The notes: generated by a model from the sequence alone, not told the origin. A stretch of DNA of 45,923 nt from a virus (IMGVR_UViG_3300045988_112896:1-45923); one strand, 5' to 3'; positions 4,397 to 45,923 are shown, counted from the stretch's first letter. Translations and numbers: made by a program.

Positions 4397-4412
4397 ACTT
4401 CCTCCTTCCTCA

Positions 4413-4430
4413 CCGCCCCTTCCGGGGCGG
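4413..4430 (-). promoter_or_regulatory. GC-rich hairpin 19 nt downstream of the VR2 stop codon (DGR target-recognition-type element)
   Basis: The printed strand reads ccgcccc-ttcc-ggggcgg: a 7-bp GC stem with a 4-nt loop. An almost identical hairpin lies at 13458..13477, downstream of VR1. Confidence 0.7.
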
Positions 4431-4449
4431 GATTGATACGGATTGTGGA

Positions 4450-5247
4450 TTAAACGCAGAAGCCGAAGGACACGCCACAACTGTGGGCGGCGCCGTAATA
4501 GTTGGCGTTGCCGTCACAGTTGACACCGCAGAAGTTGTCGGTGTCGCCGCTACGAGGAGAACGCTCCCACCGCAAATCCCGCTCACCGTTCTGCTTGCAC
4601 TTCCCGTACTCAGTGTTCTCCTGACGGTACCAGTCATACCACCGGCCCTCACCGCCCATGGAGTAAATCTTGCGTCCGAAAATCTCCTGCTCAGACAGGA
4701 TAAAGAGCTTGTCCACGGTTTCACCCATCTTGGGTTCCTTCCCGCCAGTTCCGGTCAGCTTGGAAGTGGGTTTGATGACGGCTTGCAGATCGGAAGGAAG
4801 GTCATTGAACACGGTATTGTTCAGCTTCTTGCGGAGAGCCGAATCCTTCCAGCCGCCCTTGTTGGTAAACTCGTCATTCATGGACATATCCTCGTTCAGC
4901 GTCTCCACGCACTCGAACGAAATGGGATTGATCTGGCCGTTGTTGCTGAAATCGTGATTGAAGCCGATGATACGCGCCGTCAGAACAGTGCCGTCATGCA
5001 GGAAGAAGCTCTTGGTGTCTCCCAGGTCAAACACCTTGTCAGCCATACCGGACTGAGCGTACATGGCAATCTCGGCCCAGGAACAATCTTCCAATTTCAG
5101 CTTGGGCAGATTGACCGCAGACTGGTCGAAACCGCAGGGACAAACGGTTTTCTGAGCAGTAGCCGCCTTGATGATCTGGCTCTGGAACGCAATGGTCTTT
5201 TCCATTTTTTCAAACTCAGCCGCAAGGCGAGAAATACACTCGTTCAT
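4450..5247 (-). CDS. DGR target protein 2 (remote target; C-terminal hypervariable lectin-like domain)
   Basis: The C-terminus WERSPRSGDTDNFCGVNCDGNANYYGAAHSCGVSFGFCV carries VR2. About 200 aa are homologous to target 1 (GDTK, IIGFNHD, GGW, DKLFxLSExEIFG). The chosen start is ATG 5247 (MNECISR), 6 nt after AAGGAG. The tracked ORF extends to 5466. Confidence 0.85.
   Translation of the reverse strand: MNECISRLAAEFEKMEKTIAFQSQIIKAATAQKTVCPCGFDQSAVNLPKLKLEDCSWAEIAMYAQSGMADKVFDLGDTKSFFLHDGTVLTARIIGFNHDFSNNGQINPISFECVETLNEDMSMNDEFTNKGGWKDSALRKKLNNTVFNDLPSDLQAVIKPTSKLTGTGGKEPKMGETVDKLFILSEQEIFGRKIYSMGGEGRWYDWYRQENTEYGKCKQNGERDLRWERSPRSGDTDNFCGVNCDGNANYYGAAHSCGVSFGFCV
4463..4571 (-). repeat. DGR variable repeat 2 (VR2)
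   Basis: My hand alignment of this 109 nt to TR 12851..12959 gives 16 mismatches. Every mismatch is at a printed-strand T of the TR, which is an A on the coding strand. Confidence 0.9.
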
Positions 5248-6637: not shown

Positions 6638-8308
6638 GTGGAGAAAGACATTATGAAAAGCATGAAATTTCCGATTGACCTCTCTATGCTGACTGAAGAA
6701 GAAATAGACCAATTCCGACAAGACCCCAGCACTCTTTTTGAGGGGGATACCGATGTATCTCTATATCTTCGATTCAGCTCTGAAAGACAGCGTGAACAAT
6801 CCATTGAGGGCCAACTTCGGGACTGCCGTTCCTTCTGTAAAGTAAACCGATACCGCATAGCTGCCATCTATGTTGACCGGGCCACAACCGCCAGGAAAGA
6901 TGTAGAGAAGCGTATTCACTTCCAAGAAATGATACGGGACAGCGAGAAGAAACCTTGGAAGTATGTTATAGTGTGGAAGTTAGACCGATTTGCCAGGAAC
7001 CGAACAGACAGTGCCTTATTCAAATTCCGACTCAGGAAAAATGGTGTTCGTGTAATCTCAGCCACAGAAGCTATCTCCGAAAAGCCGGAAGGTATCATTC
7101 TTGAAGCTGTTCTGGAAGGTATGGCTGAATTCTATTCCGCTGACCTCTCACAAAAGATCACCAGGGGAATGAGAGAATCTGCCTTGAAGTGTCACAGCAT
7201 TGGTGGTCATGTTCCTCTCGGCTACAAGATTGAGGATCACAAGCTCGTTGTTGACCCGAACACAGCTCATATCGTACAGGAAGCCTTTCAGCTATATGCC
7301 AACGGAGAGACTGTTGCTGAAATATGCCGTATGTTCAATACCAAAGGTTACCGGACAGCCAAAGGTGCTGAATTCAACCGGAACAGTTTCAAGTCCATGT
7401 TCCGCAACGAAAGGTACATTGGGGTTTACACCTACCGTGATATTCGCATTGAGGGCGGGGTTCCGGCCATCATTGACAAGGAATTATTTGAAACGGTATC
7501 TCATAGGCTCTCAGTCAACGCAGAAGCCCCGGCAAGGGGTAAGGCTAAGGTAGATTACCTCTTAGCCGGAAAGCTCTTCTGCGGCCATTGTGGAGGGTCT
7601 ATGAACGGGGAAAGCGGAACCAGCAAAACCAGAGCCATTCATAACTATTACACCTGTTACTCTCGGAAGCGTCATCATTCCTGCGACAAGCGTCCTTTGA
7701 AGAAAGAATGGATAGAACGGATTGTTGCACAAGACGCAATGGAACTCATGACCGATGAAGTCATTGAAGAGCTGGCTGATATGGCTATGGCTCAGACAGA
7801 TCAGGACTTGAAAGAGAATACCCGTATCCCGGAACTGACTGAGCGGAAGAAAGAAATAGAGAGCGGAATTGCCAACATCACAAAGGCCATCGAAAAAGGC
7901 ATTGCTTCTGACTCTTTAATGGAGCGGCTTGTAGAGCTGGAAAAAGACAAAAAGAAAATCCTCCGTCTATTGGAGGAAGAAGAAAAGTATGTGTGCCGGA
8001 TTGACCGGGAACAAATCATATTCTGGCTTGAGAAGTTCAAGGGTGGTAACCTGGAAGATGAAGGGTTTAGAAGAATTATCATTGACCTCATAGTGAACTC
8101 TGTCACGGTCTGGGACGAGCCTGACGGCTTTCGTATCACTACCGCATACAATTTGACCTCTTGTAAAAACAAGACATACCGGGTTTCCCCTTCTTCCGGG
8201 AAGGGGTTCGGATTTGAGGGGTCAGAGTCCACCATTGAGCGCAAATCCGAACCCTACATTGTTTGGGGTACGGTATTTGTGCAAACGAAAAGACACACCT
8301 TACCATAA
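6638..8308 (+). CDS. int: Large serine recombinase (phage integrase)
   Basis: The N-terminal resolvase domain reads YLRFSSERQREQSIEGQ...WKLDRFARN. It is followed by a recombinase domain, a Cys-rich zinc ribbon (CGHCGG...CYSRKRHHSC) and a coiled coil. The start may be ATG 6653. Confidence 0.9.
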   Translation: MEKDIMKSMKFPIDLSMLTEEEIDQFRQDPSTLFEGDTDVSLYLRFSSERQREQSIEGQLRDCRSFCKVNRYRIAAIYVDRATTARKDVEKRIHFQEMIRDSEKKPWKYVIVWKLDRFARNRTDSALFKFRLRKNGVRVISATEAISEKPEGIILEAVLEGMAEFYSADLSQKITRGMRESALKCHSIGGHVPLGYKIEDHKLVVDPNTAHIVQEAFQLYANGETVAEICRMFNTKGYRTAKGAEFNRNSFKSMFRNERYIGVYTYRDIRIEGGVPAIIDKELFETVSHRLSVNAEAPARGKAKVDYLLAGKLFCGHCGGSMNGESGTSKTRAIHNYYTCYSRKRHHSCDKRPLKKEWIERIVAQDAMELMTDEVIEELADMAMAQTDQDLKENTRIPELTERKKEIESGIANITKAIEKGIASDSLMERLVELEKDKKKILRLLEEEEKYVCRIDREQIIFWLEKFKGGNLEDEGFRRIIIDLIVNSVTVWDEPDGFRITTAYNLTSCKNKTYRVSPSSGKGFGFEGSESTIERKSEPYIVWGTVFVQTKRHTLP

Positions 8309-8876: not shown

Positions 8877-9670
8877 CAGGCCAGACCGTGTTTCTGGGCA
8901 AAGCGATAGAACAGCATAGCCGCCTGTTCACGGGTCAGGGAGTCGGCCCACATCATGTTAGGCTGACCGTCCACGGTAGTACCGTTACCGGCAAACAAAC
9001 CGACCTGGATTGCCCACTCACGAGCCTTGGCACTCCACTCACCGCAATCGTTGTCCTGGAGACTCTTGCGGTACTCAGCCATAGCGACATTGAACTTCTC
9101 ATTGAACTCGGTCTGAGTCATCTCTTCCTCTTCCTTTCCGCTCAGGCGTTTATTAACCTCTTCGGCAATCTGGCCGTGATGCTCATAAAGCCAGTTACCG
9201 GGACAGGCTTTGGCCGCAAACCAACGGTGAACTGTCATGTTCTGCTGGTCTACCTGTCCAATCAGATTCCTGTTGCCCTTCCAAAGCAATTTCTTGATAC
9301 CGTTGCGCTGGCAAATATCCACCAGCAAGTCAATGAGGGACTTGTATGCGGCATCACTGATAGGCCAGGGGTCAGCCGCTACGGTATTGGCAACCTCGAT
9401 GGTGACAGCTCTCTGGTCATTCGCCTTGGACGAAGTACACCAGCTCCGATTGCTCTCATTCACATAGAGAGCGATACGGCCATCACTGCCAATGCCGTAA
9501 TTGCTGGACGCTTTCCGGTCACTGTTAGCAAACAGGGCACCGCAGGTTTCGACAGACAGATTTCCCGCCATGCAATGAACAGAGATGGTGTCAATCACAT
9601 GGGTACGCTGACCAGAGTGGTTCGGACTCAGTTTGGTGTAAGACACCAAGGGACTATTAGTCATCTTCAT
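8876..9670 (-). CDS. Endolysin: N-acetylmuramoyl-L-alanine amidase (Amidase_2/PGRP type) with C-terminal binding domain
   Basis: ISVHCMAG...SSNYGIGSDGRIALYV...AVTIEVAN...HRWFAAKACPG is the amidase_2 pattern. The start is taken at ATG 9670 or 9664 (MKMTNSPLV), after AAGGGGGA. Confidence 0.85.
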   Translation of the reverse strand: MKMTNSPLVSYTKLSPNHSGQRTHVIDTISVHCMAGNLSVETCGALFANSDRKASSNYGIGSDGRIALYVNESNRSWCTSSKANDQRAVTIEVANTVAADPWPISDAAYKSLIDLLVDICQRNGIKKLLWKGNRNLIGQVDQQNMTVHRWFAAKACPGNWLYEHHGQIAEEVNKRLSGKEEEEMTQTEFNEKFNVAMAEYRKSLQDNDCGEWSAKAREWAIQVGLFAGNGTTVDGQPNMMWADSLTREQAAMLFYRFAQKHGLA

Positions 9671-10133: not shown

Positions 10134-10263
10134 TTCTCCTTTCTCATTTTGGTGACTTTGGTGAATGATTTTCGATTTTTACCATAAACTCTCTTATAGG
10201 ACGCTATTTAAGGAGGGTTTTATGCAAAATCAAGAAATGAGTCACCAAATACACCAGAAGCAC
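10134..10263 (-). promoter_or_regulatory. Dyad element, copy A (5' leader or upstream region of the holin gene)
   Basis: About 130 nt, homologous to 34176..34300. Arms 10150..10174 and 10234..10256 are inverted copies of TGGTG-nn-TTTGGTGA-n-T-n-ATTT. The centre contains a conserved CTATAAGAG. Confidence 0.7.
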
Positions 10264-10292
10264 AAAATATTATTTGTGGGAACTTAATATTT

Positions 10293-10742
10293 TTAGTTGT
10301 CCTGTTCGTTGGAAGAAGAGCTGAGAAAGTCATGTTTTTGCAGACGATCATCATAACTCCGACTGATATTGGCTATGGCGTGAACGGCACGATTGTTTTT
10401 GTAATCCTTGTGTTCACGACAATAGCGTTCGTAAAAGTCAATGTCAGCCAGAACATTAATGAACTCTTCCTTTGTGTGGGAAATATCCCGCAACAATTCG
10501 TTGTTGAACCTAAGAATACGGGCACGGTGTTCATCTGCGTTTCTCGCTTCATTGGCTTTCACATGGTCAGCCAAATCTTTCTTCACAGTTTCCAATTCTT
10601 TCAGAACATCAGAGTTAATGGCTCTCCCGATAGCCTTTGCGATTGCAGACCAGGGGTTGACCTTAATAGGGGCGATTTGGATAAGGGTCAGCAGAAACAG
10701 GAGCGTACCACCCCCATAACTTAAAATCTCTTGGATACCCAT
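10293..10742 (-). CDS. Membrane-anchored protein, hypothetical
   Basis: 149-aa ORF with an N-terminal TM helix (GGGTLLFLLTLIQIAPI) followed by a helical domain. Confidence 0.5.
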   Translation of the reverse strand: MGIQEILSYGGGTLLFLLTLIQIAPIKVNPWSAIAKAIGRAINSDVLKELETVKKDLADHVKANEARNADEHRARILRFNNELLRDISHTKEEFINVLADIDFYERYCREHKDYKNNRAVHAIANISRSYDDRLQKHDFLSSSSNEQDN

Positions 10743-10771: not shown

Positions 10772-11437
10772 TTACTCAACCTTTTCCCAGCCATCGGGAT
10801 ATGCGTCAGGACTCCAAACATTCCCGTCAACCAAGGAGCGATACAGGGTACCATTGTAGTTCACAATGTCCCCGGTATTGTACGCATCGTGTACCCCGGA
10901 CGGTTGACTCCAAACGGGATAGCCGCTGTCATCAAGGCCGAAAGCGTCATACAGACTCTCACTGTTAGGGCCGGGTTTCCAGTTGTCCTGAGAGGTATGA
11001 GCCTGTACCACCTTGTAAAGCTGCGGGTCACCAACGGAATTCGTACCGTAGGAGAAAATATCGCCCACGGCATAGGTGTGGTCAGGTTCCCACACGGGAT
11101 ACACCGTAGAAACCTCCATGGCCTGTTCCTCAGACAGACTCCCGGCAAACATCTGGACAACCTTCCTGAACTGTTCCGCATTTTTCAGATTGTCAATGTC
11201 GGTCAGCAGAGCAATCAGATTGTCGGCATAAATGCCGTCATCTACCTGGGTAACGGATACGGTTTCCACGCCCTCAAGATCAGGAAGCCCCTCCACATGG
11301 TAGACAGTCCCATCTACCACAATGCCCTGAGCGTTCTCGATGTCACTCAGGCCGTAGGACTCATTCTCCTGCATCTTCACCCATACCGGACTGCCGATAG
11401 TGGCAAACAGGGTACCGCCTTTATAAATCTTATACAT
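10772..11437 (-). CDS. Tail-associated carbohydrate-binding protein (two CBM5/12-like repeats)
   Basis: YAVGDIFSYG...LYKVVQAHTSQDNWKPG and YNTGDIVNYNGTLYRSLVDGNVWSPDAYPDGWEKV fit the aromatic-rich CBM5/12 pattern. ATG 11437 overlaps the RT stop codon. Confidence 0.6.
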   Translation of the reverse strand: MYKIYKGGTLFATIGSPVWVKMQENESYGLSDIENAQGIVVDGTVYHVEGLPDLEGVETVSVTQVDDGIYADNLIALLTDIDNLKNAEQFRKVVQMFAGSLSEEQAMEVSTVYPVWEPDHTYAVGDIFSYGTNSVGDPQLYKVVQAHTSQDNWKPGPNSESLYDAFGLDDSGYPVWSQPSGVHDAYNTGDIVNYNGTLYRSLVDGNVWSPDAYPDGWEKVE

Positions 11438-12581
11438 TGCATTCCCAGCCTTTCTTATTTGGATAGAACCCAAACAGGGATTTCACATATTGATTGGTCT
11501 GTTCTCTCACCTTGAAGCTGTTTCCTCGCTTCATGTGGCCGTGGTAGCTGTCTACGGAACATCGAATATCTGCCAGGGTCATTTCCCCTCTTTTCCACTT
11601 TCCCTGAAAAGAACGAAGTTTCTTGCGAATCAGTTTGGTGGAAGCCGGGTTCATTTTCAAAACCACTTTGCCATTTGAAGTGATGATGAACTTGGTCTTG
11701 AGCCATCGGAAGTAATCAGCCAGGGGAATGACCCTCGTTTTCTTCCAGTTCAGGCGTAATCCTAAACGGTCACACATCATTTCCAAGCCGAATATACATT
11801 CTGTTTTCAGATAATCAATATCCTCGTGAATGGCGTACCCATCGTCCATGTACCGGGCATAACCCTTAATACCGAGATTTTCTTTGAAGTAGTGGTCAAG
11901 AGGACTTGGAAGCAGGAGCGCATTGGTCTGAGAAATCTGACTGCCAAGCCCTAAACCAACAGGGCCAAAATCGGAAATGAAACTGTTGTGAAGCTCCCGG
12001 ACACGATCATCATGGAGCCGTCTTTTCGATTCTCTCAACAGGGGAGCATGAGGTGCTTCATCGAAGAAACTCTTGAAATCGTAGACCAGGATTCCACCTG
12101 TCAGGCCATGTTTCCGAAAATGCCTTTTCAAGTGCCGCACCAGTCTCCTGAGTGCGAAATCCATTCCACGATGTTTCAGGCTTGCCGAGTTGTCATAGAT
12201 GAATGAGGACGAATAGATAGGTACAATGCAGTAATCGCATAGACATTTCTGAACCGCTCTTTCCGAGATATGGACGGAACGAATGTGTCGTTTCTTGCCA
12301 CGCTCCATGATGTAGAACTCATGGAAGCCACGGTGTTTGAAGGTTCCGGTCTGCAATGCTTTCCAGGTGGCGGCAATGTTGGGAATAAGGTTTCCTATAT
12401 ACCGCTGAGTCGAATTCTTCCAATACACACCCTTGCAGCATTTCTTACCGGAAAGGTATAAATGCCGGAACGAAAAGACTTCATCGAAATCCCCACAAGA
12501 TAGGCTCTTTTTCTTTCGGGCCTCGTCCCGCTTCGCCTTTCTGCGTTGATAGCGGATTTCTCTCCGTTCTTCACTTGTCAT
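11430..12581 (-). CDS. DGR reverse transcriptase
   Basis: 383-aa ORF with a YMDD catalytic box (ARYMDDGYAI) and LGLGSQISQTNALLL, the SQ-containing motif typical of DGR RTs. It lies adjacent to the TR. Confidence 0.9.
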   Translation of the reverse strand: MTSEERREIRYQRRKAKRDEARKKKSLSCGDFDEVFSFRHLYLSGKKCCKGVYWKNSTQRYIGNLIPNIAATWKALQTGTFKHRGFHEFYIMERGKKRHIRSVHISERAVQKCLCDYCIVPIYSSSFIYDNSASLKHRGMDFALRRLVRHLKRHFRKHGLTGGILVYDFKSFFDEAPHAPLLRESKRRLHDDRVRELHNSFISDFGPVGLGLGSQISQTNALLLPSPLDHYFKENLGIKGYARYMDDGYAIHEDIDYLKTECIFGLEMMCDRLGLRLNWKKTRVIPLADYFRWLKTKFIITSNGKVVLKMNPASTKLIRKKLRSFQGKWKRGEMTLADIRCSVDSYHGHMKRGNSFKVREQTNQYVKSLFGFYPNKKGWECNV

Positions 12582-12850
12582 AAAAAGGGGTTCCCTCCGT
12601 ACAGTATTTTGTAGGATACGGGTTGTAACTGCTTAGTAATAACAGCCATGAAATGAGTTACCGTATATCACTCACCATGCAAGCAGCGTCCGGCTGATTA
12701 CATCGGAAGCTCCCGTTACCGGAAGGGGCATATTTCATCGATATGCCCGGATGTTTTAGCCATTTGGCAGGGTACAAGCCCTCCCTCTGCAAAAGGTTCT
12801 GATTTCGCCCAATGGGGTTACTACGACTGACCTATACGAAGTTGCAGAGT
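12582..12850 (-). ncRNA. DGR spacer RNA region between TR and RT
   Basis: 269 nt with no credible ORF. It contains a perfect 8-bp hairpin, gggcatat-ttcatcg-atatgccc (12726..12748). In characterised DGRs the TR-proximal spacer is part of the structured template RNA that primes cDNA synthesis. Confidence 0.55.
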
Positions 12851-12974
12851 CCGAAGGACACGCCATTACTGTTGTTGGCGTTGTTATTGTTGGCGTTGCC
12901 GTCACTGTTGACATTGCAGAAGTTGTTGGTGTTGCCGCTATTAGGAGAACGCTCCCACCAGTTGTTCGCAGAAC
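12851..12974 (-). repeat. DGR template repeat (TR)
   Basis: 124 nt that read on the minus strand as AAC/AAT-rich codons (SANNWWERSPNSGNTNNFCNVNSDGNANNNNANNSNGVSFG). It matches VR1 and VR2 except at its adenines. It has about 38 adenines by hand count. Confidence 0.9.
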
Positions 12975-13012
12975 AATAGCAACTAAACAGGACTTGACCC
13001 AATATCAAAAAC

Positions 13013-13441
13013 TTACTCCGGCAGATTTTTATATCTGTCGTTATCAGCTTTCTTCACCTTGGAAATGAGCTGCGCTTCCTCTTTGATAAGATTTCCAAAC
13101 TCCAACATAGCATGGTCAATCCACGGACACTTTTCAGGATTTTGGAGAATACTGTCATAGAGTAAAGTCAGCTTGGGACTTAGGTTTTGGAGGGCAATGT
13201 TCGCTTTCGTCAGACAATCCCGGCGCATCTGAGCTTCGTGCTTGTTCTTGGGATAGATGTTGTTGGCCGCTCTCACTTCATCGTGAACGGTGGAAGCAAG
13301 GTGCATGATCTTGTAAAGAAGATACGGGCCGTAGCGTTTCGGAGCCTTGGTGACTACTGAAAAGGCATGAACTTCCAGCTTTCGAGCGGTTTCAACAAAC
13401 TGCATAGCACTTTCGCCACGCATGGCCTTGATGACAGACAT
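13013..13441 (-). CDS. avd: Accessory variability determinant (Avd-like four-helix-bundle protein)
   Basis: 142-aa basic helical ORF between the target gene and the TR, which is the canonical Avd position and size. Confidence 0.75.
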   Translation of the reverse strand: MSVIKAMRGESAMQFVETARKLEVHAFSVVTKAPKRYGPYLLYKIMHLASTVHDEVRAANNIYPKNKHEAQMRRDCLTKANIALQNLSPKLTLLYDSILQNPEKCPWIDHAMLEFGNLIKEEAQLISKVKKADNDRYKNLPE

Positions 13442-13457
13442 AAGTGTTACCCTCCTA

Positions 13458-13477
13458 CCCGCCCCTTCCGGGGCGGG
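13458..13477 (-). promoter_or_regulatory. GC-rich hairpin 18 nt downstream of the VR1 stop codon
   Basis: The printed strand reads cccgcccc-ttcc-ggggcggg: an 8-bp GC stem with a 4-nt loop. Its twin is at 4413..4430. Confidence 0.7.
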
Positions 13478-13495
13478 ATTTTTGAAGATGATGGA

Positions 13496-14626
13496 TTAAA
13501 CGCAGAAGCCGAAGGACACGCCACGACTGCCGTTGGCGATGCTACTGGCGGCGTTGCCGTCACTGGTGACACTGCAGAAGGTGCTGGCGTTGCCGCTATA
13601 AGGAGAACGCTCCCACCAGTAGTTCGCAGAACCATTGACCTTCTTGATTCTGGAATTACCGGCCTTGTACCACTCATACTGATTGCCCTCTCCGGAAACA
13701 GAGTAGGTGGTAGTACCGAAAATCTCGATCTCGGACAGCAGAAACAGCTTGTCAGAGGTGGTCTGCGTTCCACTGGAAGAACCGTTGCCGGTACCGGACT
13801 TCTTGTTTACCGACTTGATGACAGATTGCAGAGCGGACGGGAGCTGACTCAGGTAGGTACTCATTCTGCTTCTCATGGCAGAACCGTTCCAACCGCCAAC
13901 ATTGGTATTGCTGCTGTTCATCTGAGCGGTAGCGTTCAGACAGTCAACCATCTGGAAGGTAATACCGGCCTTGCCACCAGAAGTCAGATCATCATGGTTG
14001 AACCCGATAATCTGAACCTGATAATTGACCCCTCCGATGTTGACGGTCTTAGTGTCACCGACCTTGAAGAACTGCTGAGCCATACCCAACTGAGAACAGA
14101 TACCAATGTCGGCCCACTCAGTATCTTCCAGATCATCTCCGATTTCAAAGGGATAGACCGTTACGATACCGATAACTTCGAGGGTATAGGTTCTGGTCTT
14201 CTGCTGACTGTTGAAGGTGTAAGTCAACTGCCAGTCACCCAGGACGGTAGGATAAAGAACCGCTTCTCCCCCAGAAACCCTTGCGCTGAGAACTTTACCG
14301 TCCTTGCTCATGGTAACCGTGGTACCGTTGTCCGCAATGACATGAACCTCAGCGGGAGAACCCTTCTGGCTCAGTGCGTACAGAGCGTCATTCACGGTGG
14401 GGTCAGACTGACTCAGTTCCAGGGCCGTCTTCGTGGTGTCGGACAGAAGATTGGCTTTGTTCTGGGGAGTGCCGACCACGGTACACCCAGCGGGGTTCAG
14501 GGAAATGTCCATGGTGGCCGTACCAGCTAAGAGCTGAGAACGCCATTCCTCATAGCTCTCAGGCATGGTGGTTGGGGCTTTCAATGTACGGGAAGTACCG
14601 TCCCCCTTGATAATGGTGTCTTTCAT
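13496..14626 (-). CDS. DGR target protein 1 (tail fibre or receptor-binding protein with C-terminal hypervariable domain)
   Basis: 376-aa ORF ending WWERSPYSGNASTFCSVTSDGNAASSIANGSRGVSFGFCV (VR1). It lies directly downstream of the tail and baseplate genes. Confidence 0.85.
   Translation of the reverse strand: MKDTIIKGDGTSRTLKAPTTMPESYEEWRSQLLAGTATMDISLNPAGCTVVGTPQNKANLLSDTTKTALELSQSDPTVNDALYALSQKGSPAEVHVIADNGTTVTMSKDGKVLSARVSGGEAVLYPTVLGDWQLTYTFNSQQKTRTYTLEVIGIVTVYPFEIGDDLEDTEWADIGICSQLGMAQQFFKVGDTKTVNIGGVNYQVQIIGFNHDDLTSGGKAGITFQMVDCLNATAQMNSSNTNVGGWNGSAMRSRMSTYLSQLPSALQSVIKSVNKKSGTGNGSSSGTQTTSDKLFLLSEIEIFGTTTYSVSGEGNQYEWYKAGNSRIKKVNGSANYWWERSPYSGNASTFCSVTSDGNAASSIANGSRGVSFGFCV
13509..13632 (-). 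repeat. DGR variable repeat 1 (VR1)
   Basis: My hand alignment of this 124 nt to TR 12851..12974 gives 16 mismatches, all at TR adenines (coding strand). Confidence 0.9.
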
Positions 14627-15228: not shown

Positions 15229-17474
15229 ATCAATCCTTTCACCTTCATCTTTCCGCTCAGAGAGCCGTTGAATGTGATTTCATCGACCAAGATCAATGCG
15301 TCCATTTCATCGGTGTAGAGGGTTTGCAGACCGATAATGTCACCCACTTCCATTTCCGGGTTGCCCCGGTAATCTGCTTCGTAGGTGTTTCGCATGGTCA
15401 GGTAGCTCATAACATGATTTGCAAGAGCCGCACACATTGTATCGTTGGTAATGAGGGGGTTTTCCTCCTTGTCGATTTCTCCCTCTAAGGCTACGGGGTA
15501 GGAAACGACCACCGAGTTCTCAGAGAGAGTCTTGCCGGTAATCACCACAGATTTAGTGCCGGAGGATAACACCAAATCCGCAGCTCTGGCATAGATGTTG
15601 GAGGAAACCAACGAACCGCCAGATACCGAGATGTTTATATCTTGTGCCGGACCAGAGAACTCAACATGAAGCTGAGTCTCGGTGGTCGTTCCCTCATAGA
15701 GTGTCTGCGAATCGTTGTTCGCAGTATAGGCATACTTGGCAACCGATACCGCCTTGAGCTGGTCAATCTTCGAGATTTTCTGACTCTTCTCACCGATAGA
15801 GGTAAAATCCAGAGTGAAGTCAGTCTCCCGATAGTAGAGCTTACTTACCCTCATTCTCCGGTAGGGAAGATTGCCGTACATTGTGACTTCAATCTTGGTA
15901 CAGTCAACCGCTTTGTTGGTGGATACAAAAACCTCAGCGGAGTCCACCTGGACGGTTTGCGTATCAAGCAAAGAAGAATCCTTGTAATACTTCACCTGGA
16001 CGGAAGAGGGATACTCGTCAAGAGAAGAGTCAAACCGGATTGCCATAACAGGGAGATCGTGAGAAACATCAAATTCCTTGGTGAAGACCGGGGGAGTGGT
16101 AAAAGAACCGTCCTCCCCGGTCATTGCTTCACTGATAAAACCTCTGCCGGTAGGGTTCTCGTCAGGGATAATCACCTGACTCCCGCCGTCCAATGTCCAG
16201 CGGTTCAGCTCCAATGTGGCATAGGTGTTACCAGCGATATTCCCCCTGTCCACAGTGTTCCACTCGCTGTACCACAGATGACCGTTGTCGTTCCACTCGC
16301 CACTGTAAATGCCGGTCACGGTCACACCAAAGGGCTTAATGTGAATGATATTGTCATCATCGGTAAACAAGCGACAACGGCAAGCATGAGCGATAAGCTG
16401 CAAACAGTTCATGTGGGTGTCAATGGGTAGAGCTGCCGTTGTGAACATTTGCTTCAAGGCAGGGTCAATATCCCAAGGGTTTGTCCCGTGTTCGGTTAGG
16501 GTCAGCCCTGCGTCTAGCAGGACTTCTTCTGCCATATCATAAAAATTCTTGTTTCCCAACTTGCTCTTGTAGAAAGTGCCGCTGAGACTGCCGATCAAAC
16601 CCGTACAGGAGAAAGTAGCCTGATTGTTCTGAGCCGTAGGCTTTCCGTTCAACAGGTACTTATCTGCCTTGAGCTTTTCGATTGTTCCATCTGGAAGCTC
16701 ATATCCATACCGAATAGAGATAGGGGCATTTTTGTCCACATAGGAGTAGATACCAACCGGGTTATCCGGGTCATAATTGTGTTCGTAATCCAGAATCACG
16801 AACTGCATGGTTTCGGTAGGAAGTCTACGGCTGAGAGGGTCAACATCGTGGCTCTGTTTGACAGATACCAGGTCTTTGTTGCGGAACACAATTTCAATGC
16901 CGTAGAGAACCGCTTGCAGTCTCGGACGGCGATAGGGCAAACATTTTCCGAAAGCAATGGTGATCTTATCGCATTGCTCAGACCTTGCGGAAATGACCAC
17001 GGTGGTTCCGGTTACCGGCTGAGTAACTGTTTCACTTACTTCTCCATTTAACCAGAATTCCACCCTCACCGTTTCCGGCCATTCCTGGTAGAGAGCGTCA
17101 AAGGTTAAGGTCAATCCTGGAAAATCATGAGGGTAAGTAAAGATTTTGGTGATAACCGCTTCGGTTGTAAACTCACCTTCACTGTTGCTCATGTGACTGG
17201 ACACAAACCCGTCATACATCGTGCCGGAAGAGGGTACAATGACCGTATTGCCGTCCAAAGCCCAGCGGTTCAGTTCCAGATCTGCATAGGACTTTTCGTA
17301 TTCGTAATTGTAGTCAAGCGTATCGAATTCAGAATAACTCTGTTCTCCGTTACTGCTCCAACTACCGTCAGTAGCCGCCGTTGCGTCTACATTTCCGAAG
17401 GAAATTTCCACATAAGAGCGGTTACGAAGCATGGACTTCATGCTGGCTTTGTAGGCATTGCTGACCGCTTTCAT
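15225..17474 (-). CDS. Large distal tail / baseplate protein with an internal domain duplication
   Basis: 749-aa ORF. Two homologous modules of about 160 aa run ELNRWALDG...LPYRRPRLQAVLYG and ELNRWTLDG...LPYRRMRVSKLYY. Confidence 0.65.
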   Translation of the reverse strand: MKAVSNAYKASMKSMLRNRSYVEISFGNVDATAATDGSWSSNGEQSYSEFDTLDYNYEYEKSYADLELNRWALDGNTVIVPSSGTMYDGFVSSHMSNSEGEFTTEAVITKIFTYPHDFPGLTLTFDALYQEWPETVRVEFWLNGEVSETVTQPVTGTTVVISARSEQCDKITIAFGKCLPYRRPRLQAVLYGIEIVFRNKDLVSVKQSHDVDPLSRRLPTETMQFVILDYEHNYDPDNPVGIYSYVDKNAPISIRYGYELPDGTIEKLKADKYLLNGKPTAQNNQATFSCTGLIGSLSGTFYKSKLGNKNFYDMAEEVLLDAGLTLTEHGTNPWDIDPALKQMFTTAALPIDTHMNCLQLIAHACRCRLFTDDDNIIHIKPFGVTVTGIYSGEWNDNGHLWYSEWNTVDRGNIAGNTYATLELNRWTLDGGSQVIIPDENPTGRGFISEAMTGEDGSFTTPPVFTKEFDVSHDLPVMAIRFDSSLDEYPSSVQVKYYKDSSLLDTQTVQVDSAEVFVSTNKAVDCTKIEVTMYGNLPYRRMRVSKLYYRETDFTLDFTSIGEKSQKISKIDQLKAVSVAKYAYTANNDSQTLYEGTTTETQLHVEFSGPAQDINISVSGGSLVSSNIYARAADLVLSSGTKSVVITGKTLSENSVVVSYPVALEGEIDKEENPLITNDTMCAALANHVMSYLTMRNTYEADYRGNPEMEVGDIIGLQTLYTDEMDALILVDEITFNGSLSGKMKVKGLI

Positions 17475-17869: not shown

Positions 17870-17881
17870 GTCCTTACCCCC

Positions 17882-20800
17882 TTAGTAAGCGTTGGAAAAT
17901 GCGCCGGAATTTACCCGGACACCTCTCTTCTGACTGTACCGATCATAAGACCGGCCAATCACATCGTCTCCGATAGATACAGACAAATCCTTGTCTTCAA
18001 TGATATTCATGAGTGCGTAGATAGCGGCAATCACGCCGTCATTGGCAACGGTTACGCCAGCGGTGATACCTTCAACAATCTGGTCGTTGTTGGCAACAGC
18101 CGTTCTCCGCCCCATGCTGCCGACCATTTCTGCACCGGCTTCACGGGCAATGAAGAGCTGACCTTCGTCAACGAAGCCACCCTCTGCCAGTCTGGGAATA
18201 GACACTTCCGGGATAAGAGAAATCTTGATACCGAGAATACCCACCAGGCCATTGATGAAGGAAATAACATCGTTGACAATACCGATAACTCCATTGATAA
18301 AACTCTCGAATAGTCCAAGACCGCCGTTCACAAATCCCTTAAAGGCATTGGTAATTCCATCCAACATATACTGAATTTTCTCAGAAAAGAAATCCCAGTT
18401 CAGGGCCACGGAGGAAGCCAGGGTAGCGGCACCGGCCAGCAGAAGACCGATACCAAGGGGGATACCAACGCCCGTTACCAGAAGCAATAGACCGAGGGCC
18501 AGCAATGCGGCACCGGCAGCTACTCCAATCTCTTTCAAAGTGTTCTTCACAGAGGTGACCACGGTAGTCCAGTTCAGAGCGGCAGTTGCGGCAAGACCAA
18601 CGGCACCGAGAGCAATCAGCCCGATGCCCAGGGGAAGCCCGGCACCGGAAAGGGCCAGAATCACGCCCAGGGCAAGAACGGCGGCACTTGCGGCAGCGGT
18701 AATGATACTGATAGTGTTTTGCACTTGGTCAGACAAACCGCTCCAATTCGGCACGATTGCCGTAGCAATCATGACTGCACCGGACAACAGAAGCGCAATA
18801 CCGAGAGGAATATTTGCACCAGAAAGAGCTAAAATAGCACCAAGGGCAAGGAACGCAATCGACACCGCCGTTGTGATAATGGTCAGAGTATTCCTGACTT
18901 CATCGGACAAACCATTCCAATTCAAGACTGCCGCAGAAGCAAGAGTGGCACCACCAATCGCCATCATAGCAATACCGAGAGGAACACCGCCGCCGCTAAA
19001 TGCCAAGATAGCACCCAGAGCCAGGAGAGCGGTTCCAACCAACACTCCAATACGAGACAGAGGTTCACTGATCTCCTTAGTAAGCGTACCCCAATTCAAG
19101 GCCGCTGCCGTTGCAATACTCACAGCACCGATAGCCATAAGAGCAATGCCCAGGCCGGTAGCAACGCCGGTAAACGCCAGCATTGCGCCAACTGCGAGGG
19201 AAGCACCGGCCAGAATACCGGTCAGGGTGGTCAGTGCGTCCGTGATATTCTGGTTACTTGCATTCCAGTTCACAACTGCCGCCGTCACAATGCTTACTGC
19301 ACCGAGGGCCATGAGTGCAATACCAAGGGGAATGTTGGCACCGGAGAACGCCATAATTGCACCCAAGGCAAGCATGAAACCGCCTACCACGCCGGTAATC
19401 AACGCTAGGGTATTTGCCAACTCTGTACTCATACCTCCCCAATTCAGAGCAATAGTGGCTCCAAGACCAACTGCACCAGCCGCCATAAGGCCAAGGCCAA
19501 GAGGGATATTAGCACCGGTCAGAACCAACATGGCACCAACAGCCAGAAGTGCGCCGGAAACAATTACGGTGATCTCAGCCAGGGAGTTTTCAATCATGGT
19601 TTTGATTTCACCAACCTTGGTGGAAATAGCGTCACCAAGGAAGTCATAATCGGGAAGTTCAAAATCAAAACCTCCCGCACCTCCACCGACACCACCGGAA
19701 CCGCTACCGCTTGCTGTATCGGGAGAAAACACATTCAGTTCGTCAAAACCAGCGGTGTACTGCTTCAACTTCTTAGCAGCACCAGCGGCATCGTCAAGGC
19801 CAGTTGCCATGTCTTCGGCACCAGCGGCTCCAAGGGTAAGGCCGGAATAATCAACCTCTGTCATCTTGAACCCAAACAGAGAAGCAAGGGCATTAGCGAT
19901 TTCCCGAATAACCTGAACTACCGCAATGGCATAGGGGAGAATGGCATTCAGAGCGGGAATGAAAATGTTGCCGATTGCTCTTGCCGCCATGGACAACTGC
20001 GCTTGCAGAATACGAAGCTGATTTGCAGGGGCTTCCAGTGTTCTTGCCAAGTCACCCTGAGCGGTTGTGACCTGAGTCATAATGGCATAGTATCGCAACT
20101 CTGCCTTTTCAGCCTGGGTCATAGAAGCCACACTCTTGTCGATACCCAGGGAAAGGGCAACCGCTTCCAATCTGGCTTGAGACAGGTCAAAACCGAGACG
20201 GCGTAACGGCTCCAACTCACCAGAAATGCCGGATTGTAGCTTCTGCATTGCGTCCTCAACAGAAATATTGAAGAAAGAGGACAGATCATAACCGAGCTGG
20301 GTCAGGTTCTTACTCATGAGAGCTGCTCGGTCTGCGGTATCACCAAATCCGGTCAGCAAAGTATTGAAAACGCCCTGGTTTCTAATCCAATCAGACAGGT
20401 CAATACCTAAAACTTCACTAACCGTCTGACCATAGGCAAACGCTTCCTCTGCGTACTCCCCCATAGCAACAGTGAAAAGGTTCAGGTTCTCTTGATATTC
20501 GTTGGACTTAGTGATAGCAGTTCCGACAAGAGACGCTATTCTTCTTAATCCGTATAAAACGGCTGTAAACTTCAACCCACCAAGGACATTGCCAAATAGC
20601 CCGGTTTGGGTAGTAGCATTTCGGATTGTATTGTTATATCTTTCGGTACTAACGATCAGCCTTTGAATTCTTGAAGGAAATGCCGAAAATCCAGCGGCAA
20701 CCCTATTCATTTCATCGGCAAACGGCCTCATTGCAATAGCCAAATCATTCATTTGCCGAGAAAACTTGTCAATGTCGGCCTTTTCTAATTCTTCAATTAC

Positions 20801-21238
20801 ACTGGGAAGCTTCTTGAGCTGATTGATAAAGGTGGTAAGATTGGAGCGTCCTAATTCGGATAGGGGCTTCAATCCATTCGCTAGAGCAACGAGCTTATCT
20901 CCATCAGTCCAACTGATTTTAGAAAGACTTACACTCAAGGCATTAAGCTGATTTGGGATAGAGCTGGATAGTTTCAAATTGCCAAGGTCTTTCAGCGTTT
21001 TTAAGCTGTTTGCAATACGGGTGATTTTCTGCGACATATCACCGCTATTCAAGCCTTTTAACGCATTGCTAAGTTCCTTAATACCCTTACTGGTCTGGGA
21101 CAACCCATTTACGCTTCTGCTGGTTGCTGTCTTCAAACGACTTAGACTATTTCTAAGTGCGTCAAGACCCTCAACTGCACCAGCACTATCCTCTTGAATT
21201 TGAAATTCCAAACCCCGGATTTCGACATTATCAGCCAT
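17882..21238 (-). CDS. Tail tape measure protein
   Basis: 1118-aa ORF that follows the G/GT chaperone pair. It has a helical N-terminal part, a long Gly/Ala-rich TM repeat region and a conserved C-terminal block. Confidence 0.85.
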   Translation of the reverse strand: MADNVEIRGLEFQIQEDSAGAVEGLDALRNSLSRLKTATSRSVNGLSQTSKGIKELSNALKGLNSGDMSQKITRIANSLKTLKDLGNLKLSSSIPNQLNALSVSLSKISWTDGDKLVALANGLKPLSELGRSNLTTFINQLKKLPSVIEELEKADIDKFSRQMNDLAIAMRPFADEMNRVAAGFSAFPSRIQRLIVSTERYNNTIRNATTQTGLFGNVLGGLKFTAVLYGLRRIASLVGTAITKSNEYQENLNLFTVAMGEYAEEAFAYGQTVSEVLGIDLSDWIRNQGVFNTLLTGFGDTADRAALMSKNLTQLGYDLSSFFNISVEDAMQKLQSGISGELEPLRRLGFDLSQARLEAVALSLGIDKSVASMTQAEKAELRYYAIMTQVTTAQGDLARTLEAPANQLRILQAQLSMAARAIGNIFIPALNAILPYAIAVVQVIREIANALASLFGFKMTEVDYSGLTLGAAGAEDMATGLDDAAGAAKKLKQYTAGFDELNVFSPDTASGSGSGGVGGGAGGFDFELPDYDFLGDAISTKVGEIKTMIENSLAEITVIVSGALLAVGAMLVLTGANIPLGLGLMAAGAVGLGATIALNWGGMSTELANTLALITGVVGGFMLALGAIMAFSGANIPLGIALMALGAVSIVTAAVVNWNASNQNITDALTTLTGILAGASLAVGAMLAFTGVATGLGIALMAIGAVSIATAAALNWGTLTKEISEPLSRIGVLVGTALLALGAILAFSGGGVPLGIAMMAIGGATLASAAVLNWNGLSDEVRNTLTIITTAVSIAFLALGAILALSGANIPLGIALLLSGAVMIATAIVPNWSGLSDQVQNTISIITAAASAAVLALGVILALSGAGLPLGIGLIALGAVGLAATAALNWTTVVTSVKNTLKEIGVAAGAALLALGLLLLVTGVGIPLGIGLLLAGAATLASSVALNWDFFSEKIQYMLDGITNAFKGFVNGGLGLFESFINGVIGIVNDVISFINGLVGILGIKISLIPEVSIPRLAEGGFVDEGQLFIAREAGAEMVGSMGRRTAVANNDQIVEGITAGVTVANDGVIAAIYALMNIIEDKDLSVSIGDDVIGRSYDRYSQKRGVRVNSGAFSNAY
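18360..19580 (-). repeat. Seven tandem ~58-aa (174-nt) repeats inside the tape measure gene
   Basis: Each unit ends at a conserved NW (IALNW, AVVNW, AALNW, AVLNW, IVPNW, AALNW, VALNW) and holds two hydrophobic segments. Coordinates are approximate. The antisense ORF 18540..19649 is a by-product of this repeat. Confidence 0.8.
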
Positions 21239-25877: not shown

Positions 25878-25939
25878 TGGTGACCTTGGCGGGACTTGAA
25901 CCCACACACCTACGGCTCTTGCCATTGAGCTACAAGATC
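25878..25939 (-). ncRNA. tRNA-like element lacking the anticodon arm (encoded CCA end)
   Basis: The minus strand reads GATCTTG TA GCTC AATGGCAA GAGC CGTAGGTGT GTGGG TTCAAGT CCCGC CAAGGTC A CCA. It has a 7-bp acceptor stem, a D arm, a T arm with a TTCAAGT loop, discriminator A and CCA. Only 9 nt occupy the space where about 23 nt (position 26, anticodon arm, variable loop) are expected. Confidence 0.6.
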
Positions 25940-30924: not shown

Positions 30925-31211
30925 TTTGACTCACCGTCCGCAGAAAGAAGAGCGTCCAAGTCATACTTCTTGTCTTCGATCTGGTCAATTACGATTTGGT
31001 CAGCTCTGCGAGGGCCGGGTTTGCGCTCCTGAATCACAATCTCATAGCCCAGGACATTCAGCATCTCAACCGCACTGTTGAAAGACAGGTTTTCGCTTCT
31101 AAGCCGGGAGCTGATTTCATTACCCCGCTCCTTACCCAGAGATTTCGCCATGGTCAGCAGAGAGACATTTTTCTCTTTCATGATATTGCGAATGGCTTTG
31201 TTGATAAACAT
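30921..31211 (-). CDS. HTH DNA-binding protein (XRE-like)
   Basis: MFINKAIRNIMKEKNVSLLTMAKSLGKERGNEISSRL. ATG 31211 follows GAGGTGA. It is the first gene behind the promoter at 31232..31260. Confidence 0.6.
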   Translation of the reverse strand: MFINKAIRNIMKEKNVSLLTMAKSLGKERGNEISSRLRSENLSFNSAVEMLNVLGYEIVIQERKPGPRRADQIVIDQIEDKKYDLDALLSADGESK

Positions 31212-31231
31212 TGCTCTCACCTCTTGTCTAC

Positions 31232-31260
31232 ACTATACACTGAATATATTAAGTTGTCAA
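31232..31260 (-). promoter_or_regulatory. Island promoter 2 (drives the HTH - recombinase - lipoprotein operon)
   Basis: The minus strand reads TTGACA (31260..31255), a 17-nt spacer ending ATTCAGTG, then TATAGT (31237..31232). Confidence 0.7.
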
Positions 31261-33228: not shown

Positions 33229-33292
33229 GTTTTACTCCCTTCCGGCCTGTCGGCCTATCGACTGGTAAACACTGAATTTATTTTGTGACTTC

Positions 33293-33321
33293 AATATACA
33301 CTGAATTTATTTTGTTGTCAA
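33293..33321 (-). promoter_or_regulatory. Island promoter 1 (drives the four-gene operon)
   Basis: The minus strand reads TTGACA (33321..33316), a 17-nt spacer, then TATATT (33298..33293). AAAATAAATTCAGTGT occurs twice, once in the spacer and again just downstream. Confidence 0.7.
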
Positions 33322-34175: not shown

Positions 34176-34300
34176 TTCTCCTTTCTTGGTGAGTTTGGTG
34201 AATGATTTTCGGATTTTGCCATAAATCCTCTTATAGTACTCTCTATATAGGGACTTTATAGTAAAAACCTGAAATGATTCACCAAATACACCAAAAACAC
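34176..34300 (-). promoter_or_regulatory. Dyad element, copy B (5' leader or upstream region of terS)
   Basis: Homologous to 10134..10263. The arms 34187..34211 and 34271..34293 are inverted copies of each other. It shares the RBS block AGAAAGGAGAA with copy A. Confidence 0.7.
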
Positions 34301-34339
34301 TAATTATATTCAGTTTTTGCTAAAAACATTCAGTGGTCA

Positions 34340-44950: not shown

Positions 44951-45923
44951 ACTTCCACCTCCATCATAGCCAGCAGCTTCTTCTTGATGGAATTGACCTT
45001 TCTGGTATTCCGCTTGGGCGGTTTCAATCCGAGGAAGTCACGGACATACCGCTTTGCCAGACGGATATACCAGTCACGGTCTACCACATCAATGGTCAGG
45101 TGATTGTCATTGTCCACCACACACTTAGACGGAAGACCGGCAATCTTCACAGGGTTTCCGGTACTCAGGTGCATTTTGTAGAGTGTTCCGTATCGGTGGT
45201 CACTCGTGGCGTACACACGATTTACCTTCTGGACTACCACCATTTCCCCGTCTACCTCATGAAGAGCATCGCCGTATTTACTACCGGCTTTTGCAACCAA
45301 CTGGAAATCCAGTAACCGGTCACACTCCATAATGGTCTTTTCAACGGGAACTTCGTAGGCCAGATAATCCTTAACCGCTCTTGCTACTACACAAGCGTTG
45401 TTGTTGATGTTGAACGCTCCTGCCGGGGCAATCCCTCGAACCAGGACACCGCCTTTGATTTTCGGCTCTCCCTTAAAGGGCACCTCAACATAATTGTTCA
45501 CATCTTTCTGGCAGATCATCTTTATCAGGTCTTCTTCCAGCTCAAACCCGGTACGCTGTTCCCACTCCTGAGTAATCTCCTGATACTTGGGAATATCCGA
45601 GTTATCCAAGCTGACCATGATACCATCGGTGTTGAGCTGAATGATTTTCAAAGTGGGACATTCCTGAGTAAGATGTTCTGCCATCTCAAGCAACTGTAAC
45701 TGACCTGAGATACAAACCGACCGGCCCATGAGAGGGTCATAGAGGGCGTTGTACTTATTCAGCATAGCTCCATAGGTGGTATTCAGAACCAGCTTCAAAG
45801 CATTTGCCGTGGCTTTATCGCCGGACTTTTTTGCCTTAACTCTCCGCTCAATGGTAGCTGCGTACACATCGGGAGAGGGGATATTCCGGCTACAATAGCC
45901 ATTCAGTGTCATTTGGTGCGGAT
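44947..45923 (-). CDS. Family B DNA polymerase, C-terminal polymerase part
   Basis: ORF track 44947..45912. KLVLNTTYGAM matches PolB motif B (KxxxNSxYG) and QLNTDGIMV matches motif C. The frame stays open to the window end and continues in 1..982. The combined gene is about 619 aa after removing the 99-nt duplicate. Confidence 0.9.
   Translation of the reverse strand, partial: PHQMTLNGYCSRNIPSPDVYAATIERRVKAKKSGDKATANALKLVLNTTYGAMLNKYNALYDPLMGRSVCISGQLQLLEMAEHLTQECPTLKIIQLNTDGIMVSLDNSDIPKYQEITQEWEQRTGFELEEDLIKMICQKDVNNYVEVPFKGEPKIKGGVLVRGIAPAGAFNINNNACVVARAVKDYLAYEVPVEKTIMECDRLLDFQLVAKAGSKYGDALHEVDGEMVVVQKVNRVYATSDHRYGTLYKMHLSTGNPVKIAGLPSKCVVDNDNHLTIDVVDRDWYIRLAKRYVRDFLGLKPPKRNTRKVNSIKKKLLAMMEVEV
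45825..45923. repeat. Terminal direct repeat, copy 2 (identical to 1..99)
   Basis: Same 99-nt string as the window start. Confidence 0.95.

Follow-up and report, generated by a model that had tools for sequence, protein, structure and literature searches.

Evidence for a two-target diversity-generating retroelement in an uncultured gut phage of Oscillospiraceae

The virus sequence IMGVR_UViG_3300045988_112896:1-45923, hereafter the window (the whole stretch of 45,923 nucleotides that was analysed), carries on its minus strand a reverse transcriptase (RT) gene close to two similar repeats, which raises the question of whether these form a diversity-generating retroelement (DGR) and, if so, which proteins it diversifies. 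A preliminary description, made by reading the sequence, had proposed a complete DGR at the end of the tail module, ordered target, avd, template repeat (TR) and RT, with a single target gene ending in a variable repeat (VR1). The three minus-strand open reading frames on which it relied (383, 142 and 376 aa; Table 1) are present as given, and the peptide strings that it quoted match the translations. Every feature by which a DGR can be recognised in silico was found here, each component being backed by an independent test, and we conclude, with a probability of about 0.93, that the element is a phage-encoded DGR of the common target-avd-TR-RT layout, serving two targets. The proposed target (target 1) was thus borne out, but not its being the only one, as a second target with its own repeat (VR2) lies at a distance from the cassette.

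The TR and VR1, which belong to the single direct repeat returned by a repeat finder in this region (12844-12977 and 13502-13635), align without gaps. When read on the minus, coding strand, they differ at 16 positions, all of which are TR adenines (nine A>G, four A>C and three A>T), in agreement with the earlier hand alignment; with 38 adenines in 124 nt, the hypergeometric chance of such an outcome is about 4e-10. All 38 adenines occupy codon position 1 or 2 of the target frame, and a stop codon can be reached by mutation from none of the TR codons. A protein search with target 1 returned 5128 homologues, and the top 120 were nearly all singleton clusters. Among 119 metagenomic orthologues of equal length, the mean entropy amounts to 1.96 bits at the 22 codons that contain an adenine in the TR versus 0.01 bits at the 18 adenine-free codons, and to 0.078 bits over the remainder of the protein. 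The expectation that variation is confined to TR-adenine codons therefore holds across this set, and where AAY codons vary most, only residues reachable from AAY are seen.

Hypervariation in this lineage follows the DGR rule. In 80 related IMG/VR contigs, the VRs of each genome were compared with its own TR, 33 distinct TRs being present among 82 genomes. The 71 VR1 copies contain 1100 mismatches at adenines versus 75 at other positions, and the 25 VR2 copies, from as many genomes, contain 409 versus 36; the non-adenine mismatches cluster in a small number of loci that have indels or are probably misassembled. Any single VR copy is changed at about half of its adenine sites and, among the clean copies, nearly all sequences are unique (67 of 68 for VR1, 20 of 21 for VR2).

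VR2 emerged from a scan of the whole window, which located a third copy of the repeat at ~4404-4571. Its ungapped alignment with the TR, over a stretch that holds 34 TR adenines, again shows 16 mismatches, 16 of 16 at TR adenines. Target gene 2 starts with an ATG at 5247, preceded by an AAGGAG ribosome-binding site, and codes for a short N-terminal helical segment followed by a DUF6273 domain. Its homologues (265-277 aa) all harbour this domain (PF19789) and fall into clusters of up to 7308 distinct member sequences. Targets 1 and 2 share 47% identity over their C-terminal 215 aa (E 4e-58). The gene is not adjacent to the cassette: it is found 8.4 kb from the TR, amid replication and recombination genes, and its neighbours code for an Hjc-like resolvase and a helicase, with no structural genes among them. 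This position, together with the sharing of 107 out of 124 nt with the TR, could be taken to mean that VR2 is non-functional, having been left behind when the target C-terminus was duplicated or recombined. We regard this as highly improbable in view of the adenine-only mismatches in the window, the same bias and the near-complete uniqueness of copies in the relatives, the size of the homologue clusters, and the retention of two target-site elements (an end sequence and a hairpin, described below) although the sequence between them has diverged. Moreover, non-adjacent DGR targets inside one prophage are on record (PMC5758913).

With regard to the RT, the two boxes named in the preliminary description were located at residues 244-247 (YMDD) and 213-220 (GSQISQTN), the latter overlapping an LGLGSQISQ segment (210-218). 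The protein matches Pfam RVT_1 and phrog_1423 (E 7.6e-72). Its sole match among PDB sequences is bRT, the RT of the Bordetella phage DGR (8ub7-8ube, 328 aa; E 2.4e-14, 56 bits), and the fold library names the RT of 8ub7 as that of a DGR ribonucleoprotein. LGLGSQISQ aligns with IGSLTSQ of bRT, a palm segment of the I/L-G-x-x-x-S-Q type, in which residues I181, G182 and Q187 contact the template and the incoming nucleotide (bioRxiv 10.1101/2023.10.23.563531). A tblastn search retrieved 93 phage records, including Roseburia phage Shimadzu (43% identity) and Faecalibacterium, Vibrio and Bordetella phages, some of these relatives being phages described as DGR carriers. These matches support the assignment of the protein to the DGR clade of RTs, with an intact catalytic YxDD box and palm motif.

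The best NCBIfam match of the RT is a group II intron RT/maturase (TIGR04416), and weak matches to defence-RT (DRT) models were also obtained, which could suggest that the enzyme stems from a group II intron, a retron or a defence system and that the repeats are coincidental. However, TIGR04416 scores 55 bits against a cut-off of 300, a PDB search that matched bRT gave no group II intron RT at E <= 0.01, and no group II intron or retron RNA family reached threshold in an Rfam scan of the window. The hits to the PADLOC DRT models are generic RT-domain matches of at most 64 bits. Neither a group II intron nor a retron or defence identity was therefore retained, in line with the preliminary description, and since the adenine-only pattern, repeated in ~96 VR copies, is specific to DGRs, the probability of such an origin is negligible.

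The 142-aa protein encoded between target 1 and the TR, which had been described as Avd-like and helical, gives a weak profile match to phrog_3206, 'Avd protein of DGR' (E 9.8e-5), and is related to the Avd of phage Shimadzu (BLASTP E 0.001). Its AlphaFold2 model, with a predicted local distance difference test (pLDDT) score of 89, is a four-helix bundle with four long helices; the best TM-scores, normalised by target length, range from 0.62 to 0.84 and are obtained with 2gsc, 4dwl (BPP-1 Avd), the Avd chains of 8ub7, and 2rld. When each of 39 aligned homologues was scanned against Pfam, one marginal bAvd-like match (E 0.095) was found. Its assignment to the Avd proteins draws on the PHROG match, the fold model, the basic charge and the gene position, the sequence evidence being weak.

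Further elements are shared by the two target sites. Directly 3' of the common repeat, both VRs read GGCTTCTGCGTTTAA and the TR reads GGACTCTGCAACTTC in the alignments, with two fixed TR/VR differences, A/C at 12850 and C/T at 12849. The VR-type sequence is common to VR1 and VR2 and is conserved in the relatives, and most TRs retain the other version; these two differences represent a boundary resembling the initiation of mutagenic homing elements (IMH in the VR, IMH* in the TR), and not additional mutagenised sites. At ~18 nt beyond this end, the two sites carry the same hairpin, CCCGCCCC-GGAA-GGGGCGG(G), with the ribosome-binding site of the next gene after it. After VR1, this hairpin begins 18 nt past the stop codon of target 1, just ahead of the ribosome-binding site of avd, and its DNA fold has an energy of -12.5 kcal/mol (z -2.6). 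The consensus CCCGCCCC-GNNA-GGGGCGG is kept after both VRs in all relatives, with GGAA, GTCA, GTAA, GTTA or GCAA as the loop, and one copy carries a compensated stem change, CCCGCTCC...GGAGCGG. At VR2, both the IMH-like end and the hairpin are retained despite the diverged sequence between them. In phage BPP-1, target recognition involves an IMH/IMH* boundary and a GC-rich hairpin or cruciform (PMC3240598, as summarised in PMC5758913), and the elements found here appear, by analogy, to correspond to these.

The TR and the start of the RT gene are separated by a spacer of 269 nt, which has changed less than the genes on either side: in a relative with only 74% RT identity, it is still 89% identical. 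A cmscan search identified in it the Rfam RT-2 RNA, at full length (model positions 1-222) and with 148.4 bits against a gathering score of 40; phage Shimadzu and three relatives likewise match this family, RF03077, in their TR-RT spacers. Weinberg et al. (2017) described RT-2 as 'near RT genes', proposed a DGR link for RT-10 alone, and speculated that the other RT motifs were possible DGR parts (PMC5737381); RT-2 is now located between a verified TR and its RT. In the RNAalifold consensus of 33 distinct spacers, 65 pairs were obtained with 99.6% of the cells paired, and 12 pairs display compensatory changes, compared with 3.8 +/- 1.1 in shuffled controls (0 of 500 reaching 12) and 0-3 with slid partners.

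The spacer of the window and of relatives at 81-100% RT identity contains an extra ~40 nt (12695-12740, minus strand), which form one or two added hairpins (GGGCAUAU...AUAUGCCC; CCGGUAACGG) that covary within this subgroup, and a subgroup at ~75% RT identity is devoid of them.

Two helices (helices 1-2) are predicted between the 3' end of the TR and the spacer, comprising 18 pairs, three of which show compensatory changes. The spacer strand concerned is conserved, yet unpaired in the Rfam RT-2 consensus. By analogy with the TR117-129:Sp47-56 template:primer duplex visualised in BPP-1 by cryo-electron microscopy (bioRxiv 10.1101/2023.10.23.563531), these helices may be viewed as a putative template:primer duplex. 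The last mutable TR adenines are 12866 and 12867, and the next one, at 12850, faces an invariant C in VR1 and VR2 of this genome; all relatives conserve the VR-type CT at 12850/12849. This pattern fits a cDNA start between these positions, at the edge of the predicted TR:spacer duplex.

What the two targets do can be approached through their domains and gene positions. The preliminary description placed the 376-aa protein just downstream of the tail genes, with VR1 at its C-terminus, and considered it a likely receptor-binding tip. The gene does follow the tape-measure and distal tail genes, being preceded by the tape-measure gene and three further tail-region genes. The protein contains Pfam PF19789 (DUF6273) at residues 235-371 (E 4.5e-21), a domain for which a lectin-like nature has been put forward (PMC10743442), and its C-terminal half matches the annotated tail fibre of phage Shimadzu (BLASTP E 4e-10). 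An Ig-like beta-sandwich is found at about residues 90-157, and a search of PDB sequences with the target gave zero matches. Target 1 is most likely the receptor-binding tip.

The idea that VR1 and VR2 are directed at the same receptor was considered and is unsupported. Within genomes, the likeness of the two VRs at adenine sites is 0.439 versus 0.422 +/- 0.018 for permuted pairs (p ~0.17), so that within-genome pairs are no more alike than pairs between genomes. Within a genome, the two VRs thus vary independently of each other, a pattern that would agree with distinct ligands. Target gene 2 lies amid replication and recombination genes, far from the structural module, and we can also propose, as a rather doubtful conjecture, that target 2 is not a virion receptor-binding protein. 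It might then be a diversified protein whose expression does not depend on that of the tail genes, for instance in the lysogen or early in infection, and which could act upon the surface of the host, on the environment or on rival phages. A separate part of this conjecture is that the RT-2 RNA would be the cis-priming scaffold of an entire clade of DGRs in Clostridia phages.

Several observations weigh against the two-target DGR proposed here or against parts of it. The genome is represented by a single assembled sequence, which cannot show heterogeneity of the VRs within the sample. A few related contigs (L022, L034, L039 and L051, as well as L003) show non-adenine mismatches or indels in a VR, and these could be assembly artefacts or decayed copies. 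As for the target, its AlphaFold2 model, based on an alignment of 65 homologues of targets 1 and 2, reaches a pLDDT of 66 overall and less than 50 over residues 329-376, which include the VR; a PDB fold search with this poor model gave small Ig-like beta-sandwich matches at ~90-157 and no lectin fold. The Avd candidate has no Pfam or NCBIfam match, a profile search of PDB sequences with it recovered no Avd, and its model reaches no significant E-value in Foldseek, which is what a simple helical fold would lead one to expect. Lastly, the priming nucleotide, which we infer together with the exact cDNA start, would by strict analogy with BPP-1 be a U (12774) and not an A, and the details of priming are uncertain.

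Two contigs with an identical RT are ~95% identical to the window, with indels, and the TR is 100% identical in two relatives with an identical RT, L003 and L004. In L003 (IMGVR_UViG_3300045988_099538), 23 nt are deleted from within VR1, and VR2 is truncated or collapsed (8970-9075 and ~17870-17915); the contig of L004 terminates inside VR2. These VR defects stem either from misassembly at hypervariable sites or from aberrant homing.

One may ask, given that there is one assembled sequence only and that L003 reveals defective copies or misassemblies in the lineage, whether the element is a fossil, that is, whether an ancestor possessed an active DGR that is now non-functional here, the VR differences being inherited. 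Such a scenario is distinctly unlikely. The parts are intact: the RT is full-length and harbours YMDD, avd is undamaged, the TR is stop-safe, each VR keeps its IMH-like end and hairpin, and the RT-2 RNA is present at full length. In addition, the closest orthologues of target 1 (94-96% identical) differ mostly within residues 335-368, with 13 of 16 differences inside the VR in the case of P0001, and L004, despite its identical RT and TR, bears its own set of 14 adenine-only VR1 mismatches.

If the two-target DGR operates by analogy with BPP-1, mutagenesis would start with transcription of the avd-TR-spacer-RT region. The RT-2-type spacer RNA would then fold, bind the RT-Avd complex and pair with the 3' end of the TR, leading to cis-primed reverse transcription just upstream of 12851. 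The RT would copy the TR toward its 5' end, placing random nucleotides opposite adenines, and the resulting cDNA would take the place of one of the two VRs, whose target sites are presumably marked by their common IMH-like end and by the GC-rich hairpin downstream of each. In this way, 22 codons of target 1 and 20 codons of target 2 could be randomised, giving ~10^22 and 10^20 protein variants, respectively, with no stops.

Table 1. Positions of the retroelement parts and of other features discussed, in window coordinates.
Feature	Position	Strand	Description
Reverse transcriptase gene, DGR type	11430..12581	-	383 aa
Structured spacer RNA	12574..12835	-	Rfam RF03077 (RT-2 RNA), between TR and RT
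Spacer strand of putative TR:spacer duplex	12774..12792	-	UUGCAGAGGGAGGGCUUGU
3' TR end and IMH*-like segment	12842..12863	-	predicted to pair with spacer 12774-12792
TR	12851..12974	-	124 nt, 38 adenines
avd-like accessory gene	13013..13441	-	142 aa, isoelectric point 9.3 (basic)
GC-rich hairpin after VR1	13458..13477	-	CCCGCCCC-GGAA-GGGGCGGG
IMH-like 3' boundary of VR1	13496..13508	-	VR1 CTTCTGCGTTTAA (stop codon at end), TR ACTCTGCAACTTC
VR1	13509..13632	-	encodes target 1 residues ~333-372
Target gene 1	13496..14626	-	376 aa, last gene of tail module
GC-rich hairpin after VR2	4413..4431	-	same sequence as hairpin after VR1
VR2	4463..4569	-	ungapped match to 3' 107 nt of TR (12851-12957)
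Target gene 2	4450..5247	-	265 aa, VR2 at C-terminus
Large serine recombinase gene	6638-8308	+	Resolvase, Recombinase and Zn-ribbon domains
Tape-measure gene	17882-21238		upstream of target 1
43-nt inverted repeat arms	34183-34225 / 34255-34297		
Exact 99-nt direct repeat	1-99 / 45825-45923		window ends

The source of the window is an uncultured temperate gut phage of Oscillospiraceae. The sequence represents a circularly closed genome of ~45.8 kb on the basis of the exact repeat at its ends, which is most likely an overlap in the assembly of a genome of ~45,824 bp that is circular or terminally redundant. It codes for an SPP1-type portal, an SU10-type capsid protein, a terminase, a D5-like primase-helicase and the large serine recombinase, and this gene content, together with the tape-measure gene, points to a temperate siphovirus-like phage. 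Related prophages are found in Dysosmobacter segnis BX15 (NZ_JACOQI010000020.1), Oscillospiraceae bacterium CM18GR_63 and Candidatus Heteroscillospira. A DNA-level search for named phage relatives gave none, the sole matches being two unannotated gut-virome fragments. Many related contigs terminate ~4 kb downstream of the RT start, and in prophage L083 this region holds a tRNA and a signal recognition particle (SRP) RNA gene. From these contig ends and the position of the tRNA and SRP RNA genes, we infer a phage attachment site (attP) at ~8.3-8.9 kb, adjoining the integrase; if so, VR2 and the DGR cassette would come to lie near opposite ends of the integrated prophage.

Some further features were observed along the window. 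Directly after the RT, and overlapping its stop codon, a gene for a ~221-aa protein (10772-11437, minus strand) codes for two CBM_5_12 carbohydrate-binding modules (Pfam E 2.6e-12) and sits between the DGR and a putative holin/lysis region; it may serve as a tail accessory protein or bind the cell wall. Within the tape-measure gene, a 63-nt unit occurs five times (18395-19327, minus strand), spaced by 348 nt and then three times by 174 nt (58 codons), and gives the protein an internal periodicity. Upstream of target 1, the 749-aa tail protein contains an internal duplication (16185-16225 and 17250-17290, spaced by 1065 nt or 355 codons), which is also present in the relative MT837512.1. Two distant copies of a ~150-nt intergenic element (10149-10301 and 34186-34338, 73% identity) could be a regulatory or terminator element; the former lies downstream of the lysis-region genes, and the latter holds the 43-nt inverted repeat. 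In the early region, a 59-nt AT-rich repeat, ..TATACACTGAAT.TATT..GTTGTCAA, present in two copies 2 kb apart (31202-31260 and 33263-33321), resembles a promoter or operator that has been duplicated. A weak Rfam tRNA-like match located between the capsid-region and portal genes (25881-25939, minus strand) scores 41.5 bits against a threshold of 29, and an ARAGORN scan of the window returned zero tRNAs.

Target-avd-TR-RT is the most common DGR architecture, and DUF6273 targets as well as two-target DGRs of gut phages have been described before; the present element, though well supported, is an ordinary representative of a known system and leaves the understanding of DGRs as it was. What it adds is a fully dissected DGR from an uncultured and very widespread lineage (more than 5000 target homologues, and prophages in Dysosmobacter and other Oscillospiraceae).

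The reference system, mtd-avd-TR-brt of phage BPP-1, has its genes in the same order. There, too, the TR-to-VR changes are specific to adenines and lie at the 3' end of a target associated with the tail, and the accessory protein is a basic four-helix bundle; BPP-1 also has an IMH/IMH*-type boundary followed, downstream of the VR, by a GC-rich hairpin with a 4-nt loop (PMC3240598, in the account given by PMC5758913), and a structured spacer RNA of which one strand pairs with the TR 3' end (bioRxiv 10.1101/2023.10.23.563531), as is predicted here. The two elements differ in that the match to the BPP-1 RT amounts to only 56 bits and the Avd relationship is barely detectable by sequence. Furthermore, the targets here are two DUF6273 proteins, whereas BPP-1 possesses one, Mtd, the spacer RNA is RT-2, whereas that of BPP-1 was reported as an RT-10 motif (PMC5737381), and the host is a Gram-positive-type gut anaerobe.

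In Roseburia phage Shimadzu (LR596903.1), a tail fibre-Avd-TR-RT order is found at the end of the tail module, where the record annotates tail fibre, Avd and RT; the TR/VR pair measures 129 nt, RT-2 RNA is located between TR and RT, and the C-terminal domain of the target is homologous. However, the identities are limited to 43% for the RT, 27% for Avd and 26% for the target, the phage is of the myovirus type, having baseplate J and P2 genes, and no second VR was found in the 13-kb stretch examined.

Two-target DGRs have been reported for the Faecalibacterium phages Lelie and CP11, with a large and a small DUF6273 target (PMC11792537), and for the gut phages nd4 and nd12, with a tentaclin and a small DUF6273 target (PMC10743442). 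As in the window, one TR serves two DUF6273 targets, the larger of which is linked to the structural module, whereas the second is small and single-domain, with short flanking helices, and VR2 is shorter than VR1. In contrast, RT identity to these phages is ~30%, both VRs are C-terminal here, with no tentaclin carrying an N-terminal VR, and the second target lies outside the cassette, while theirs are inside it. A conserved two-target design with the second target outside the structural genes is one of the two most useful by-products of the analysis. The other concerns Rfam RF03077: the full-length 148-bit match stands at the expected place, immediately upstream of the RT gene, and ties this orphan motif to a DGR spacer RNA, and the stretch left unpaired in the Rfam consensus covaries here with the 3' end of the TR, in keeping with a BPP-1-like TR:spacer duplex.

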